In this document: piece by piece, positions 4,708 to 14,343 of the stretch
Layout: every line of letters starts with the position of its first letter
How positions within the stretch are numbered: the first letter of the stretch is position 1
Assembly (NCBI GenBank): GCA_019561565.1
Contig: JAHEPY010000002.1
Span: 1-24,000, forward strand
Direction of reading: 5' to 3'
DNA: 24,000 nucleotides
Source: Methanothermococcus sp. SCGC AD-155-M21
Lineage (GTDB): Archaea; AGJL01; Methanococci; Methanococcales; Methanococcaceae
Notes under the pieces: model-generated
The model's input: the letters and a program-made list of their open reading frames with translations, nothing else
Told to the model about the DNA's origin: nothing
Database searches by the model: none
Made by a program: the position numbers and the translations under genes

Positions 4708-6546
4708 ATGAAAGGAGCGGAGGCCGTAATAAAAGCATTGGAGTATGAAAAAGTAGATGTTATATTTGGATATCCTGGAGGAGCCCTATTGCCATTCTAT
4801 GATGCCCTGTATGATAGTGATCTTATACACATACTTACAAGGCATGAACAGGGAGCAGCCCATGCAGCAGATGGATATGCAAGAGCCAGTGGAAAGGTTG
4901 GAGTATGTGTTGCAACCTCTGGACCTGGTGCTACCAATCTTGTAACAGGCGTGGCCACAGCCCATGCTGATTCCTCTCCCATAGTGGCAATTACAGGACA
5001 GGTGCCCACTAAATTAATAGGTAATGATGCCTTTCAGGAGATAGATGCCTTAGGATTATTTATGCCAATTGTAAAGCACAATTTTCAACTTAGGAGTGCT
5101 AAGGAAATACCTGAAACCATCAGATCTGCATTTAATATAGCAAAAACAGGGAGACCTGGACCTGTGCATATTGATTTACCTAAGGATGTGCAAGAGGAAG
5201 AATTAGATTTGGATAAATATCCAATACCTGCAAAGGTGGAGTTGCCAGGTTATAAGCCTACAAAGATGGGACATCCAAAACAGATTAAATTAGCCTCATC
5301 CCATATATCTAAAGCCGAGCGCCCTGTAATCATAGCCGGTGGCGGTGTAAATATAGCAAATGCCACCTCAGAACTTATGCAACTTGCAGAATTATACAGT
5401 ATCCCAGTATGTACCACACTTATGGGAAAGGGTTCCTTTCCAGAGGATCATCCATTGGCTCTTGGAATGGTGGGCATGCATGGAACCAAACCTGCAAACT
5501 ATGCTGTTTCTGAAAGTGATTTGTTAATAGCCATAGGATGTAGATTTTCAGATAGAATAACTGGAGATATTAATAGTTTTGCCTCCCATGCAAAAATTAT
5601 ACATATTGATATAGATCCTGCAGAAATTGGGAAAAATGTTAGGGTAGATGTTCCCATTGTTGGTGATGCAAAACTTATATTAAATAATATTGTATCTCAT
5701 CTAATTAAAATGAATATGAATAATAATAATGCAAATAGGGAGTGGATAGAATATCTACAATCCTTAAAGAAATCCTGTACTCCTAAGATGGATTATAGTG
5801 ATGTACCTATAAAGCCTCAAAGAATAGTTAAGGGGCTAATGAATGTTATAAGGGAATTAAACATAGAGAAAAGATCCATAATAACCACAGATGTTGGACA
5901 GAACCAAATGTGGATGGCACATTACTTTAAAACCCATTTTCCAAGGTCTTTCCTATCCTCTGGGGGATTGGGAACCATGGGCTTTGGATTTCCCTCTGCA
6001 ATAGGTGCCAAGATAGCAAAACCTGATTTTAAGGTAATATCTATTACTGGGGATGGGGGCTTTATGATGAATATTCAAGAATTGGGAACCATTGCAGATT
6101 ATAATATACCTGTTGTAATATGTTTATTTGATAATAGGACCCTTGGAATGGTATATCAGTGGCAGAACATATTCTATGGAAAGAGACAGTGTAGTGTTAA
6201 TTTTGGAGAGACTCCTGATTTCGTAAAGGTTGCAGAGGGTTATGGAATAAATGCCCTAAGGATAACAAATCCTGAAGAAATAGAGGAATGCCTTAAAGAG
6301 GCCCTACTTAGTGATAAGCCCTATTTACTTGACTTTGCCATAGATCCATCTGAGGCATTATCCATGGTGCCTCCAGGGGGTAAATTAAAAAATATAATAG
6401 ATCCCATTACTGAGCATCCTAATGAAAAAGTTATATGCTTTGATGAAATAAAAAGGAGATTCTTGGAAAAAGACAGTAATAAAAATGAAGATACTCTATC
6501 GGAGGAATTATCTGAATCTGAGAAGGATGAGGGTATAAAGGTGTAG
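4708..6546 (+). CDS. ilvB: Acetolactate synthase (AHAS) large subunit, TPP-dependent
   Basis: Motifs are GYPGGALLPFYDAL, HEQGAAHAADGYARASGKVGVCVATSGPGATN and the TPP motif GGLGTMGFGFPSAIGAK...ITGDGGFMMN. The small subunit follows directly. It ends in an acidic, Ser-rich C-terminal tail. Confidence 0.93.
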   Translation: MKGAEAVIKALEYEKVDVIFGYPGGALLPFYDALYDSDLIHILTRHEQGAAHAADGYARASGKVGVCVATSGPGATNLVTGVATAHADSSPIVAITGQVPTKLIGNDAFQEIDALGLFMPIVKHNFQLRSAKEIPETIRSAFNIAKTGRPGPVHIDLPKDVQEEELDLDKYPIPAKVELPGYKPTKMGHPKQIKLASSHISKAERPVIIAGGGVNIANATSELMQLAELYSIPVCTTLMGKGSFPEDHPLALGMVGMHGTKPANYAVSESDLLIAIGCRFSDRITGDINSFASHAKIIHIDIDPAEIGKNVRVDVPIVGDAKLILNNIVSHLIKMNMNNNNANREWIEYLQSLKKSCTPKMDYSDVPIKPQRIVKGLMNVIRELNIEKRSIITTDVGQNQMWMAHYFKTHFPRSFLSSGGLGTMGFGFPSAIGAKIAKPDFKVISITGDGGFMMNIQELGTIADYNIPVVICLFDNRTLGMVYQWQNIFYGKRQCSVNFGETPDFVKVAEGYGINALRITNPEEIEECLKEALLSDKPYLLDFAIDPSEALSMVPPGGKLKNIIDPITEHPNEKVICFDEIKRRFLEKDSNKNEDTLSEELSESEKDEGIKV

Positions 6547-6719
6547 TTTTAGGAATATATAAAAAAATAATATTATTATAAAAATAAAAATTAAAAAAAT
6601 TAGAATTAATAAAAAAATAAAAGAATTATTAAAATAAAAAATAAAATAATTAATTTAATTTATTCAATTTAGGGCATTATTCCATAGGAACATGCCACAA
6701 TATAAAATCTGGTGGTTTT

Positions 6720-7268
6720 ATGGAATCTATAAAATCAGAAAAAAAGGAAAAAAATAATGAAACCCATACTCATATAATATCTGTGTTGGTATTGAACAAT
6801 CCAGGAGTATTGCAGAGAATTGCAGGACTTTTTACAAGAAGAGGCTATAACATCAGTAGTATTACAGTTGGCTCTACTGAATCTCCAAACCTGGCAAGAA
6901 TGACCATAGTAGTCAAAGGAAATGATAAGATTCTTGAACAGGTGGTAAAACAACTTAATAAACTTATAGAAGTTATTAAAGTAAGTGATTTAAGTGTTAA
7001 TAAGTGTGTAAAAAGGGAACTTTGCCTTATAAAAATCCATGCTCCAAATGAAAGTAGTAAATCCCAGATAATACAATATACCAACGTATTTAGGGGAAAA
7101 ATTGTGGATCTAAGTCAGGAGTCTTTAACAGTGGAAATAACTGGAAATAGTGATAAAATAAATGCATTTGTGGATTTAGTTAGAAACTTTGGGATTAAGG
7201 AGATGGCCCGTACTGGTTTAACAGCCCTTATGAGAGGTCCCAAGATATTAAAATCAAAAAAATCTTAG
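6720..7268 (+). CDS. ilvN: Acetolactate synthase small (regulatory) subunit, ACT domain
   Basis: [34 protein letters not shown] is the typical AHAS small-subunit ACT start. The gene lies immediately downstream of ilvB. Confidence 0.9.
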
Positions 7269-7314
7269 GTTATTAATTTTTAATGAATAATAATATATAA
7301 TTTTCGGTGAAATA

Positions 7315-9312
7315 ATGAAGTTCAATTTAAAAGGAAAAATAATATTCAGTAGGGAGATAAGTGAGGATATTAAAAAGGATATAGAAGAAGTATTGAAAAA
7401 CAGTAGAGACATTTTCCTAAAGGGAGTGCCAAAGGGAAAGGAGGATGAGGCCGCTAAAATAATAGATTATGATTTTCAAGGAAATGAACTTTTATTACAC
7501 ATAGATTCAGGTACTTATGCCAGGGCCCATGAGGCCATTATAAGGTTGAAGAAGCCCATTATTGAGAAGATTGGGAAGAAACATAAGATAGGTATTAGAG
7601 GTATCCTCATTGAGAACTATGATATCAACATACCTGTAGGATATAATATAGTAATGAGTATGAACTTACAAGAAATAGAATCACTATCTAAGAAATTACA
7701 AGAATTACCACTTATGAAATTACGAGAAATGAAATTGCAAGAATTACCACTTATGAAATTACGAGAAATGAAATTACCGGATATGAAATTGCAAGAAATA
7801 GAATCGCAATATAAGAAATTACGAGAAATGAAATTACCGGATATGAAATTGCAAGAAATAATATCACAATATAAGAAATTACAAGAAATAGAATTACTAT
7901 ATAAGAAATTACAAGAAATAGAATCACTATCTAAGAAATTACAAGAAATAGAATCACTATCTAAGAAATTACAAGAAATAGAATCGCAATATAAGAAATT
8001 ACAAGAAATAGAATCACTATCTAAGAAATTACAAGAAATAGAATCGCAATATAAGAAATTACAAGAAATAGAATCGCAATATAAGAAATTACAAGAAATA
8101 GAATCGCAATATAAGAAATTACAAGATACGAAGGTACAGGATACAGAAGCACTAGAATTAAAATTTACATTCGGTGATATATGTGAGAGAGAACTTAAAA
8201 GAAATATCATAGACCGGACCATAAAGTTTGTAAAAACCCATTTAGAGTCAGAAAAGGAAAAGGATTTAACCTTTGATGTTTGTGCCATAGAACCAGGTAC
8301 CATAGTAAGTGAATACAAAAGAAAAAGAGCTATTACATTTAAGGAGGATCCAACAGATGTTGCAGAGAAACTTGGATGGGTTAGAAGGTTCATAGGAAAA
8401 GGACAGTGGTTTTACACTCCTCCAATGACAAAGTTATTTAGAACCTTTGAGGAACTTATAATGGAGGAGTGTATTGATAAAATAGGATTTGATGAATGCC
8501 TATTCCCTAAGTTGATACCTCTGGAGGTTATGTATAAAATGAGATATTTGGAGGGACTTCCTGAGGGCATGTATTATGTATGTCCTCCAAAAAGGGATCC
8601 TCTAATGTTTGAGGAATTTGTAAATGAAATGATGATAAAGAAGGAAATACCCATTGAAAAATTAAGGGGCCTATTGAGGGATCCAGGATATGTATTGGCT
8701 CCTGCCCAGTGTGAGCCATTCTATCAATTCTTTGATCATCAGTTGATTGATGTAGATAAACCTATAAAATTTGTGGATAAAAGTGGTTGGACCTATAGAT
8801 GGGAAGGAGGAGGAGCAAAGGGGCTTGATAGGGTTAATGAATTTTTAAGGATAGAGTGCGTAGAAATGGGAAGTCCAGAGTTTGTTGAAAGGGTTAGGGA
8901 TGATACCTTAAAATATGCAGAAAAACTTGCTGAAAAACTTGATTTAGAATATTGGACTGAGGTTGGAGATGATCCCTTTTATTTGGAAGGTAGAAAAAAG
9001 GAAGATAGAAACATAGAGTTCCCAGAGGTACCTAAGTACGAAATGAGATTATGGCTACCTCACATAAAGGATGAAAGAAAAGGAGTTGCAGTAACCTCTG
9101 CAAATGTCCATGGAACCCATTTTGTTGAAGGTTTTGGCATAAAGGACTATAGGGGGAGAAAGGTTTGGAGTGGTTGCACTGGTTATGGTATTAGTAGATG
9201 GGTAGTGGGATTCTTGGCCCAGTATGGATTTAATTACGATGATTGGCCAGAGATGATAAAGAAAAAAATTAAGAAACTACCAGAAATTCCAAAGGTAATT
9301 AATTGGCCTTAA
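7315..9312 (+). CDS. serS: Seryl-tRNA synthetase, methanogen type, carrying a ~150-aa repeat insertion
   Basis: It aligns by eye with methanogen-type SerRS through [64 protein letters not shown] and [20 protein letters not shown]. The 665-aa length is well above the roughly 500-520 aa I recall for this family. Confidence 0.9.
7663..8126 (+). repeat. In-frame tandem repeat inside serS, built from 30-, 24- and 15-nt modules that all begin AAATT(A/G)
   Basis: There are near-identical 30-nt units, aaattacaagaaatagaatcactatctaag and ...tcgcaatataag ([10 protein letters not shown] / [10 protein letters not shown]). Shorter modules [13 protein letters not shown] and KLPDM are interspersed. This is seen directly in the sequence. 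Confidence 0.95.
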
Positions 9313-9432
9313 ATAATGACTTAAAAAAAAATTATAAAAAATAAAATAATAATTAAAAATAGATATAAAAATAAAATTATAAAAAATAAGATTTTGAATA
9401 ATAAAGGAATAAAAACATAAAAATAAATTAAA

Positions 9433-9590
9433 ATACCTATAAATTAGTAAAAACATAAAAAGTAAAAGTCCCATTATTAATTCCTTATGCTCCCAAGCAC
9501 TGGAAAAAGGATAAAACCCTTTTACAGGATATCTTATGGAAGTTCATATTGATACGGTAGGGATTTAAAGCATCTTTTTATTGATGTTTT
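9433..9590. repeat. Copy B of the paralogous intergenic element (candidate small-RNA gene; strand unresolved)
   Basis: It shares the 5' block and internal blocks with 1177-1330 (see copy A). An internal hairpin aaaagg-ataaaac-cctttt lies at about 9505-9523. The T-run ctttttatt lies near 9575-9583. A perfect tttatata box on the - strand lies at 9620-9627. Confidence 0.4.
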
Positions 9591-11235: not shown

Positions 11236-11782
11236 GGTCTGATTTTAACTAGAGCAATAGAAACTGGTATTCCGTTAATACCTGCAAGTTTCCATCCCAC
11301 TATGGTCTGATTTTAACTGTATAAATGCATTGAGTTTAGGACAATCACATTTTGCGTTTCCATCCCACTATGGTCTGATTTTAACTATATATTGAAACAT
11401 CATATTGCCATAAGAATTTTAAGTTTCCATCCCACTATGGTCTGATTTTAACATATTGGATTTTCTATTGATTTTGATTTATTGCATAATTAGTTTCCAT
11501 CCCACTATGGTCTGATTTTAACTTAAAGGATTAGTAATGGATTTAGAGAAGATATAAAAGTTTCCATCCCACAATGGTCTGATTTTAACTATTTTGATTA
11601 TGATGATGCATATACAAGTATATTAAAGTTTCCATCCCACTATGGTCTGATTTTAACATATAATAAATCTTTTAAATATAAAAATCAAATATTTAATTTG
11701 TTTCCATCCCACAATGGTCTGATTTTAACAAACCAATACGAGCGGTTATGGAAAGAATTTTAAAAGGTTTCCATCCCACAAT

Positions 11783-11831
11783 CTCAAAATTCCTTCGGAA
11801 TTTTTACGATTTACTCGCTACGCTCGTAAAT
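11783..11831 (-). repeat. 49-nt insert inside CRISPR repeat R9 (composite repeat 11767-11845)
   Basis: This is the same 49-mer at the same repeat position, with one substitution (T to A at 11820). Confidence 0.95.
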
Positions 11832-14343
11832 GGTCTGATTTTAACATAGTAATGAATATATAGAATTTTTAATAAGTAGTATAGGTTTCCATCCCACAAT
11901 GGTCTGATTTTAACCTCCCGGATATGATTTAAATCAAGAAACTAATAAATCGTTTCCATCCCACAATGGTCTGATTTTAACACTGTTAGATTTTTAGGCC
12001 CATCTCCAGTTATAGTCTGTTTCCATCCCACAATGGTCTGATTTTAACCCATTAATGTCCAGGACCCATATAAAAACCTGGTTTTGTTTCCATCCCACAA
12101 TGGTCTGATTTTAACAAGTTTCTCCAAACTCCTCAACTTCAGCAATTAATAGGTTTCCATCCCACAATGGTCTGATTTTAACAGAGTATGATCACATAAA
12201 AAGGATAAAAGTTAAATGTTTCCATCCCACAATGGTCTGATTTTAACTTAATACCCTCACTCATGCATTTTCCCTCTTTCCTGGTTTCCATCCCACAATG
12301 GTCTGATTTTAACGGGGTTCCTGCCAGGTCCTTTTGATTCAAAACCCATCTCCAGTTATAGTCTGTTTCCATCCCACAATGGTCTGATTTTAACCCATAC
12401 ACTCAAGAACAATCTGACAGCACAGAATTCAGTTTCCATCCCACAATGGTCTGATTTTAACATGTAGCAATGATATTATCCATAGTTTCCAAATTCGACG
12501 TAGTTTCCATCCCACAATGGTCTGATTTTAACAAATTATAAAATCTATGAACCTAACTTATTACGAGTTGTTTCCATCCCACAATGGTCTGATTTTAACG
12601 TATTTATTTTAACTTTTAATTTATATGATAATCCAGGTTTCCATCCCACAATGGTCTGATTTTAACTCACTGCCCCAAATGTGCAGATTTATGAATATTC
12701 CTCGTTTCCATCCCACAATGGTCTGATTTTAACTTCATGAGGGGAGAATTTTTAGGAGAGAACTTAGTCAAGTTTCCATCCCACAATGGTCTGATTTTAA
12801 CAATAGATAAGTATAATATTAATTTATATGACTATAAATGTTTCCATCCCACAATGGTCTGATTTTAACGATATATTAGATGATAAAATCCTTGAGATAA
12901 TACCTGGTTTCCATCCCACAATGGTCTGATTTTAACATCCTCCCTCATCATTAGAAAAAACCAGATGTAAATGGTTTCCATCCCACAATGGTCTGATTTT
13001 AACATTAATTTTCCAATATCCTTGCTTTTGATATATTCAAGTTTCCATCCCACAATGGTCTGATTTTAACATGCACTGTATCCTCTTGCATCCCAATTCC
13101 CTGAATTCATGGAAGTTTCCATCCCACAATGGTCTGATTTTAACTGATTACGTGATTTATACAGATGCCAATACCTATAAGTTTCCATCCCACAATGGTC
13201 TGATTTTAACTACCTTTAAGGTTATACTTTAATTTTAATAATTCTAATGTTTCCATCCCACAATGGTCTGATTTTAACCGTATGAATATACCCATATAAA
13301 AAGTTTCCATCCCACAATGGTCTGATTTTAACTTTACATAAGAAGAAACTAAAACATACCCTGCATTTTTGTTTCCATCCCACAATGGTCTGATTTTAAC
13401 GATGTTTAATGGAACACACAATGAACAATTCAGGAATTTGTTTCCATCCCACAATGGTCTGATTTTAACTATTTTTTTTCATATGCTCATATGTCTTTAT
13501 CATCTGTTTCCATCCCACAATGGTCTGATTTTAACAAGATTATATATAAGAATATGATTATACAGAAATAGGTTTCCATCCCACAATGGTCTGATTTTAA
13601 CAAATCGACAAGTTGTCTGTAAAAGAATTAATAGAACTAAGTTTCCATCCCACAATGGTCTGATTTTAACAATTAAATGAAAATGAAATAAAACAAATAA
13701 TAGAAGATTGTTTCCATCCCACAATGGTCTGATTTTAACCTTCTACTTAATAAAGTTATATTTCCATCTCTAACTTCGTTTCCATCCCACAATGGTCTGA
13801 TTTTAACTCGTATTTGCTTGGAAAAGATATTTTAAAGGTGATACAAGTTTCCATCCCACAATGGTCTGATTTTAACTTTAACACTAAGACTGATAAAGGG
13901 ATATACATAAAAATGATGTTTCCATCCCACAATGGTCTGATTTTAACAAAACCCATGCGTACTAGTAATATACATATTCTTTTAATTAGTTTCCATCCCA
14001 CAATGGTCTGATTTTAACTGTAATCATACCAGCATCAACTGTACAGATACTATACAAGTTTCCATCCCACAATGGTCTGATTTTAACTGGAAATTAATAA
14101 GTAATCCTATTAAACACAAATTTGAGTTTCCATCCCACAATGGTCTGATTTTAACATACCATATAAGATTATACACAAGTACCCCAGAAGCATTGTTTCC
14201 ATCCCACAATGGTCTGATTTTAACTGCATGCCCTATATTCGTTGAATTACGGCTATTTTTGTTTCCATCCCACAATGGTCTGATTTTAACTAGAAAAATA
14301 TAGAAATGAAATAGAAAGTATTTATGAGTTTCCATCCCACAAT

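Follow-up and report, generated by a model that had tools for sequence, protein, structure and literature searches.

The 24,000-nucleotide (nt) stretch analyzed here (the window; positions 1 to 24,000 of contig JAHEPY010000002.1 from Methanothermococcus sp. SCGC AD-155-M21) contains serS, the gene of a methanogen-type seryl-tRNA synthetase (SerRS) that harbors a long in-frame tandem array. The gene occupies 7315..9312 on the forward strand including the stop codon, was identified as an open reading frame (ORF) with profile matches, and encodes 665 amino acids (aa) without stops or frameshifts across 1995 nt. A Shine-Dalgarno-like motif, GGTGA, can be read on the same strand at 7306..7310, 4 nt 5' of the ATG. 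The source assembly comprises 0.92 Mb in 98 contigs and is 55% complete with an estimated contamination of 0.57%; the nearest relative of this Methanothermococcus is the single-cell genome SCGC AD-155-C09.

The serS gene and its tandem array

An initial annotation, made from the DNA letters alone, had recognized a methanogen-type SerRS on both sides of a repeat, and the profiles agree. TIGR00415 (serS_MJ) scored 840.5 bits (cut-off 489.55) and NF002120 scored 790.5 bits (cut-off 611), both matching in two stretches, one on each side of the insert. PF18490 (tRNA_bind_4) covers the N-terminus (E 1.5e-44), which confirms the proposed position of the insert in the N-terminal tRNA-binding domain, and PF00587 matches the class II core with 33.4 bits. 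The SerRS of M. kandleri (3W3S) is the top sequence match in the PDB (E 9.5e-141), in an alignment that is split into residues 1-106 of the window protein with M. kandleri 3-108 and residues 281-665 with 134-526. It is also the top Foldseek match of the predicted structure (3w3s_A, E 3.8e-48, TM score 0.71 normalized to the target). The window protein retains C466, E514 and C621 of the zinc site, which are invariant in an alignment of 90 SerRS sequences. They correspond to C306, E355 and C461, reportedly the zinc-binding Cys/Glu/Cys of M. barkeri SerRS; this numbering was checked against the 20-residue tag offset in the PDB alignment. The window SerRS thus shares full-length profile matches on both sides of the insert, domain order, zinc ligands and the positions of tRNA extra-arm contacts with methanogen-type enzymes (M. 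kandleri 3W3S, M. barkeri 2CIM/2CJ9), but differs from them by about 155 residues inserted between strand four and the last strand of the N-domain and by its length of 665 aa compared to 482-552 aa.

The array lies at 7663..8126 on the forward strand and encodes residues 117-271. Parsed unit by unit, it consists of eleven 30-nt, two 24-nt and five 15-nt units and a partial unit; Tandem Repeats Finder (TRF) describes the whole as period 30 with 12.4 copies, 86% matches and a score of 499. The 30-nt units encode KLQEIES[L/Q][S/Y]K and variants thereof, both 24-nt units encode KLQELPLM, and the 15-nt units encode KLREM three times and KLPDM twice. Location, frame and unit lengths of 30, 24 and 15 nt, all multiples of 3 so that the frame is kept, are as first proposed, and eleven 30-nt units were counted where at least eleven 10-residue units had been claimed. 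The tract had been estimated at roughly 150 aa; the array itself covers about 155 residues, whereas the window SerRS is 147 aa longer than the sister enzyme (665 compared to 518).

From 5' to 3', a first 30-nt unit (7663-7692) is followed by two copies of a proline-bearing 39-nt higher-order unit that joins KLQELPLM and KLREM (7693..7770; TRF period 39, 2.2 copies, 95% matches), by mixed 15- and 30-nt units with a 60-nt higher-order period encoding 35 aa (7771..7875), and by eight consecutive 30-nt units (7876..8115). The last seven 30-nt units belong to only two types, which differ from each other at 3 nt, and end in the order SLSK, SLSK, SQYK, SLSK, SQYK, SQYK, SQYK; the eight-unit stretch is the youngest part of the array. 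A partial unit, KLQD, starts at 8116, and a 15-nt duplication encoding LQDTK and VQDTE spans 8120..8149 (TRF period 15, 1.9 copies, 86% matches). The almost perfect unit identity noted at first therefore holds for the last seven units but not for the 5' third of the array, which is degenerate. The homogeneous 3' units argue for the recent expansion that had been suggested. Head-to-tail order, lengths in multiples of 3, high identity between units and nested higher-order units together present the pattern of slippage-type growth.

A 20-nt core of the unit, with up to 3 mismatches allowed, occurs 11 times within the array. Outside it, the 0.92-Mb genome contains just 2 near-matches, both with 3 mismatches, and a control search with the reversed pattern gave 1 match per strand. 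The ORF list also contains an antisense open frame of 258 codons (7617..8393, reverse strand). Its translation is the repeat read backwards, and it stays open only through the lack of reverse-strand stops in the repeat unit; although no family matches were sought for it, we regard it as a by-product of the stop-free repeat and not as a gene. Elsewhere in the same genome (contig C75, 15627-17162), a 60-nt-period array of about 25 copies with 70% identity is embedded in an open frame of 733 codons with a high content of K, E, I and L. It belongs to a separate repeat protein, and its units are unrelated to those in serS.

Normal sequence had been thought to resume after the array, but the flanks are not normal for the family. 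The two crystallized enzymes, from M. kandleri and M. barkeri, and 38 of 38 relatives that cover the segment have a strand with a conserved (K/Y/M)(V/I)P motif after the loop. Its sequence is YVPVA in M. kandleri, KVPYI in M. barkeri and KVPEC in Methanococcales. This strand was not found in the window SerRS, which has the 15-nt duplication (8120-8149) in its place. The loss of the motif leaves the profile-based family membership unaffected and is a real structural departure. A resemblance between the units and KVPEC-QEVI raised the idea that the repeat was seeded from the lost strand. We rejected it, as local nucleotide alignments of four unit combinations with nine relatives were no better than codon shuffles (p = 0.15-1.0).

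Loop variability, predicted structure and tRNA contacts

At the level of presence or absence, the array is missing from 39 of 39 relatives. The other complete serS frames in 40 species genomes of the phylum encode 502-545 aa; the 120 best of 450 90%-identity clusters have SerRS of 505-552 aa, and the full-length 50%-identity representatives of a set of 15 billion proteins measure 482-536 aa. No enlarged insert like that of the window was found in these phylum genomes, clusters or representatives. The 90-sequence alignment provides anchors around the loop in the invariant R95 and the near-invariant R301 (window numbering). Most homologues have 53-62 residues between these anchors and 14 Methanobacteriales sequences have 68-85, compared to 207 in the window SerRS. 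Judged from these sequences, the insertion site is the main length-variable loop of the family, and the window insert, about 2.4 times as large as the next-largest loop, is the sole tandem array at the site.

According to the initial annotation, unrelated insertions at this position across the family would make it a known variable loop. This applies in part: 14 of 89 aligned homologues carry unrelated insertions of 15-30 residues in the same loop, but the window insert is larger. The Methanobacteriales enzymes (541-552 aa, e.g. P0248 and P0231) share the insertion site, where their sequence is unrelated to the rest of the family. In contrast to the window SerRS, their insertions are short, occur in many species, keep the strand as MPYV and are not high-identity tandem arrays. 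The next-largest loop (85 residues) is found in P0248 and P0244, both 552 aa long, and contains a small duplication, IDAGAMIK / IDVGAMII. Small duplications at this site are therefore not confined to the window genome.

The tract is composed of 19% L, 19% K, 17% E and 13% Q with a net charge of +3, and prolines occur at positions 132, 145, 155 and 175. A first AlphaFold2 (AF2) model based on a 14-sequence alignment was discarded, with a mean predicted local distance difference test score (pLDDT) of 47.8 and an unfolded catalytic core; the model used here was built with the 90-sequence alignment and reached a mean pLDDT of 76.7. The core of the N-domain (residues 1-110) is predicted with a pLDDT of 86-97 in 10-residue block means. 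Residues 134-157 fall below 50 and are predicted to be disordered, including residues 134-152 of the stretch encoded by the 39-nt units (127-152). Helices are predicted at 159-171, 176-233 and 235-272. Over residues 181-270 the block means range between 50 and 84, and the score dips at 229-231. The last two helices are separated by a break near 229-234 and may pair with each other. Residues 270-277 are again below 50, and the last strand (280-290) returns to about 86. The expectation of an alpha-helical tract thus stands, with moderate confidence, for the distal two-thirds, but not for the proximal third, which contains the four prolines and is predicted to be disordered.

The tract had further been described as heptad-like. 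However, the hydrophobic signal in residues 176-272 is strongest at a period of 3.35 (10/3), with a power of 193, compared to 0.9 at 3.5. The pattern is a 3-3-4 decad, not a heptad, and it continues regularly and amphipathically over about 100 residues without a stop or frameshift. Two known folds were considered and rejected. A canonical coiled coil is at odds with the missing 3.5 periodicity, and Pfam PF09006 scored only 19.7 bits (cut-off 22). For a leucine-rich repeat, the best PDB match reached E = 1.4e-4 with no stretch passing alone, and all others were at or above 0.005. The 10-residue units with 3-3-4 spacing also differ from the 20-29 residues and the LxxLxLxxNxL motif of leucine-rich repeats, and AF2 gives helices.

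In M. kandleri, SerRS contacts tRNA-Sec through R40, R69, R72, E75, K82, R83, E86, R90 and H150 (PMC3711452). In the PDB alignment, these residues map to K36, T67, R70, E73, K80, P81, E84, K88 and N297 of the window SerRS, all of them outside the array and identical to the sister enzyme (locus L040). The gene of tRNA-Ser(UGA) (contig C97, 7173-7259) is 100% identical to those of three congeners with ordinary SerRS. It is one of 13 tRNAs recovered in the incomplete assembly, and tRNA-Sec and the other tRNA-Ser isoacceptors are not among them. A co-evolving tRNA was considered and rejected, as the sole recovered tRNA-Ser is unchanged. The earlier suggestion of a convergent tRNA-binding arm is therefore not supported by the positions of the contacts, which lie outside the insert, or by the unchanged tRNA-Ser, and nothing in the sequences compared points to a new role in tRNA recognition. 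The atypical SerRS is also known to bind arginyl-tRNA synthetase (ArgRS) and ribosomal P-stalk proteins, and ArgRS binds to the catalytic domain of SerRS (PMC10817482).

Ancestry of the array-bearing segment

The array lies within a divergent block of 680 nt (7539..8218, forward strand) that was delimited by maximum-likelihood breakpoints at 7539 and 8219 and by site patterns. Outside the block, the window is about 96% and 93% identical to the sister locus L040 on the two sides; inside, the two values drop to 62% and 57%. The protein is 96-100% identical to the sister throughout, except for residues 92-300. Third-codon positions are saturated from 7539 onwards, and identity to the sister is back at about 8219. 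The synonymous divergence (dS) from the sister, calculated according to Nei and Gojobori (NG86), is 0.19 and 0.17 outside the block and incalculable inside owing to saturation.

The non-repeat flanks of the array within the block resemble a second Methanothermococcus clade (clade 2; loci L045, L046, L010 and L009). The left part is 82-85% and the right part 73-78% identical to clade 2, compared to only 62-69% identity to the sister. In residues 311-410 the relation is reversed, with 98% identity to the sister and 73-78% to clade 2. Informative sites are distributed 34:12 (clade 2:sister) inside the block and 15:312 outside (Fisher p = 1.8e-26). According to the breakpoints, the saturation, the identity values and the site patterns, the array rides on a segment of different ancestry, which would be either a recombinant allele from an unsampled, clade-2-like donor or part of a chimeric contig. 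The block thus has the features of a recombinant allele, namely abrupt ends, a step in synonymous divergence and a conflicting phylogenetic signal, but a chimeric assembly would look alike.

In the 11 kb that are colinear with the sister genome, this is the only intragenic divergent block, and the other segments of low identity are AT-rich intergenic DNA. Two such intergenic segments, at 2701-2850 and 9301-9500, are 53-77% identical to the sister genome, with neighbors at about 94%; they are fast-evolving intergenic repeats. The colinear part includes 4708-7268 (about 94.5% identity), where two ORFs of 612 and 182 aa 5' of serS look by eye like the large and small subunits of acetolactate synthase. 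Just 3' of serS, arrays of clustered regularly interspaced short palindromic repeats (CRISPR) with the repeat GTTTCCATCCCAC(A/T)ATGGTCTGATTTTAAC are located at 11286-13739 (to about 14470), and further arrays with this repeat occur along the same contig at 38200-40600.

A probable tolerated insert and its alternatives

We consider it somewhat better than an even chance (roughly 55%) that the tract is a young helical insert that grew by slippage and is tolerated in a permissive loop, that the SerRS is functional and probably the only one, and that the segment with the insert is recombinant. Slipped-strand mispairing or unequal recombination would have duplicated units of 15, 24 and 30 nt, in frame and in a nested manner, and so built the tract of about 155 residues in the main length-variable surface loop between the long strand 94-108 and the last strand of the domain (280-290). 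It would project from the N-domain, probably exposed to solvent, with a flexible, proline-containing proximal part and an amphipathic, helical distal part. Neither the mapped tRNA contacts nor the zinc site nor the remainder of the enzyme is altered, so that the activity would be retained and the insert would be tolerated and near-neutral, not a new device for recognizing tRNA. In this reading the allele is mosaic: homologous recombination would have brought in the segment with its repeats already present, or the array would have formed in it later. Several observations weigh against this explanation. All evidence comes from one genome with a fragmentary assembly, and the collections searched contain no independent record of the array or its flanks. 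Moreover, the missing (K/Y)VP strand is conserved from Methanopyrus to Methanosarcina, the AF2 model shows five strands in the N-domain compared to six in the family, and the domain may be more disturbed than the word tolerated implies. Finally, a regular amphipathic pattern is also expected of a structural element under selection.

The same lack of a second record and the division into 98 contigs at 55% completeness would fit an assembly product, that is, a chimera with a clade-2-like serS segment in a clade-1 backbone, an array misassembled in copy number or order, or both. We regard this as unlikely, but as the most probable of the alternatives. Sharp breakpoints around a block of foreign ancestry are also what an assembly path that switches strains would leave behind, and single-cell genomes labeled SCGC AD-155 occur in both clades, which suggests a common source. 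Exact protein look-ups gave no second record of the array, and its two-unit DNA pattern was not found in metagenome contigs. When metagenome contigs were searched for the protein sequence of the distinctive 3' flank, all matches were ordinary alleles. Searches for homologues, based on words from residues 60-330 or on the block alone, likewise yielded only ordinary SerRS, including a clade-2 fragment of 218 aa. On the other hand, the block is at most 85% (73-85%) identical to any sampled clade-2 sequence, and as no sampled lineage exceeds this value, even a chimera would derive from a serS allele that really bears the array. No exact internal repeat is longer than 84 nt, so that k-mers of at least 85 give a unique assembly path and reads of ordinary length suffice for it. 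All k-mers of at least 99 are unique and private substitutions occur in several units, which makes an artifact of loop traversal unlikely; a collapse would make the array look smaller and would not produce one. The low estimated contamination, the absence of a second intragenic divergent stretch in the colinear 11 kb and the lack of such an array in other housekeeping genes of the assembly also speak against an artifact. A general problem with the assembly of repeats was rejected, the other coding arrays of the genome being long-period units in large repeat proteins. In a clade-2-like genome (G001, locus L012), the serS contig C58 ends at position 2992 with 'FRNIGEKELKRNII', within about six codons of the site that corresponds to the end of the window array, and the N-terminal half of serS was not found in that assembly. 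This contig end could reflect a repeat-induced break, in which case it would indicate another array-bearing allele, or chance.

Two further explanations concern the protein itself. A functional helical arm, in which a hairpin or coiled coil adds contacts to the long variable arm or elbow of tRNA-Ser or tRNA-Sec, in analogy to the arm of bacterial-type SerRS, or offers a surface for docking (to the ribosome or a partner, for instance) or oligomerization, is improbable in our judgment. It would agree with the two long predicted helices and the break between them, with the amphipathic 10-residue pattern kept over about 100 residues, with the location in the tRNA-binding domain, with the frame kept in an essential gene that is under strong purifying selection elsewhere, and with the known binding of atypical SerRS to ArgRS and P-stalk proteins (PMC10817482). 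Yet the arm is absent from every relative, including a sister that is 96-100% identical outside the block, tRNA-Ser is unchanged, and the mapped tRNA contacts lie elsewhere (PMC3711452). The period of 10/3 is not the 7/2 of canonical coiled coils, a net charge of only +3 provides no basic surface for binding nucleic acids, and the known contact with ArgRS is made by the catalytic domain (PMC10817482). The very young, homogeneous units point to recent slippage rather than to a maintained structure. The more specific version, a two-helix arm that a thermophilic methanogen built de novo and very rapidly in evolutionary terms from the 10-residue repeats, and that replaces the conserved beta-strand and grips the long variable arm of tRNA-Ser or tRNA-Sec or docks to partners such as the ribosomal stalk, would be quite improbable. 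If true, it would represent an independent, repeat-driven origin of an arm like that of bacterial-type SerRS and a live example of the birth of such an arm.

It is very improbable that the window serS is a decaying copy on its way to being lost, with its function served by a second, uninterrupted serS located in the 45% of the genome that the assembly lacks. The incompleteness of the assembly leaves room for such a gene, and the conserved (K/Y)VP strand is lost. Nevertheless, the 1995 nt contain no stop or frameshift, and the ratio of nonsynonymous to synonymous substitution rates (dN/dS), calculated against the sister, amounts to 0.057 in residues 1-74 and 0.026 in residues 303-665, or 0.03-0.06 outside the block. 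A second uninterrupted serS, for which the initial annotation had recommended a search, was not found in the 55% complete source assembly, neither of the methanogen type nor of the bacterial type. A bacterial-type serS above cut-off was found in none of 13 genus genomes, eight of which are at least 90% complete, and every genus genome with a complete gene has one full-length methanogen-type serS. Because of the low dN/dS, the intact zinc site, the lack of a second serS in the assembly and the single copies in the genus, decay backed by a second gene appears unlikely from the sequence data. In genome G011 (contig C8, 2185-2808), a second, partial serS fragment of 207 aa with 86% identity to window residues 459-665 lies beside the full-length copy; at an estimated contamination of 2%, it is probably due to strain heterogeneity or contamination.

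We did not find an expanded array described for methanogen-type SerRS. In-frame coding arrays are typical of surface and repeat proteins. The window array resembles such minisatellite-like arrays of prokaryotes in its unit lengths in multiples of three, its nested units, its uniform end and its presence or absence among close relatives, but its host is an essential single-copy translation enzyme, whereas the other coding arrays of the source genome are found in large repeat proteins. The arm of bacterial-type SerRS (T. thermophilus 1SER; TIGR00414, PF02403) is comparable as a long helical element in a tRNA-binding domain, with the two-helix prediction for the window tract being of moderate confidence. 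However, the window SerRS has no PF02403 match, TIGR00414 reaches only 24.6 bits (cut-off 301.65) and matches only core positions 224-318, and the tract is an internal loop insert of 10/3 period and not the N-terminal domain itself. The CAAD insertion of cyanobacterial valyl-tRNA synthetase is a conserved, non-repetitive domain with membrane helices and a reported role in localization, from which the window tract differs as a young repeat array in one genome. As one of the non-catalytic helical insertions of aminoacyl-tRNA synthetases (PMC4893482), CAAD is likewise a large, lineage-restricted insert that leaves catalysis intact.

Aminoacyl-tRNA synthetases rank among the most conserved of enzymes, and their idiosyncratic insertions are usually old and fixed in a lineage, whereas the window array is very young. 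The strand that it removes is conserved in three orders of methanogens, and the remainder of the gene is under strong purifying selection. With a real allele, the mosaic block would be evidence that diverged Methanothermococcus lineages can exchange such an allele by homologous recombination. If the contig were an assembly chimera, it would be a warning regarding repeat-bearing alleles in single-cell genomes or metagenome bins. If the allele is real, it shows what structural load the tRNA-binding domain of this enzyme can bear and offers a starting point for questions on the birth, through slippage, of helical arms and other appended domains in aminoacyl-tRNA synthetases.

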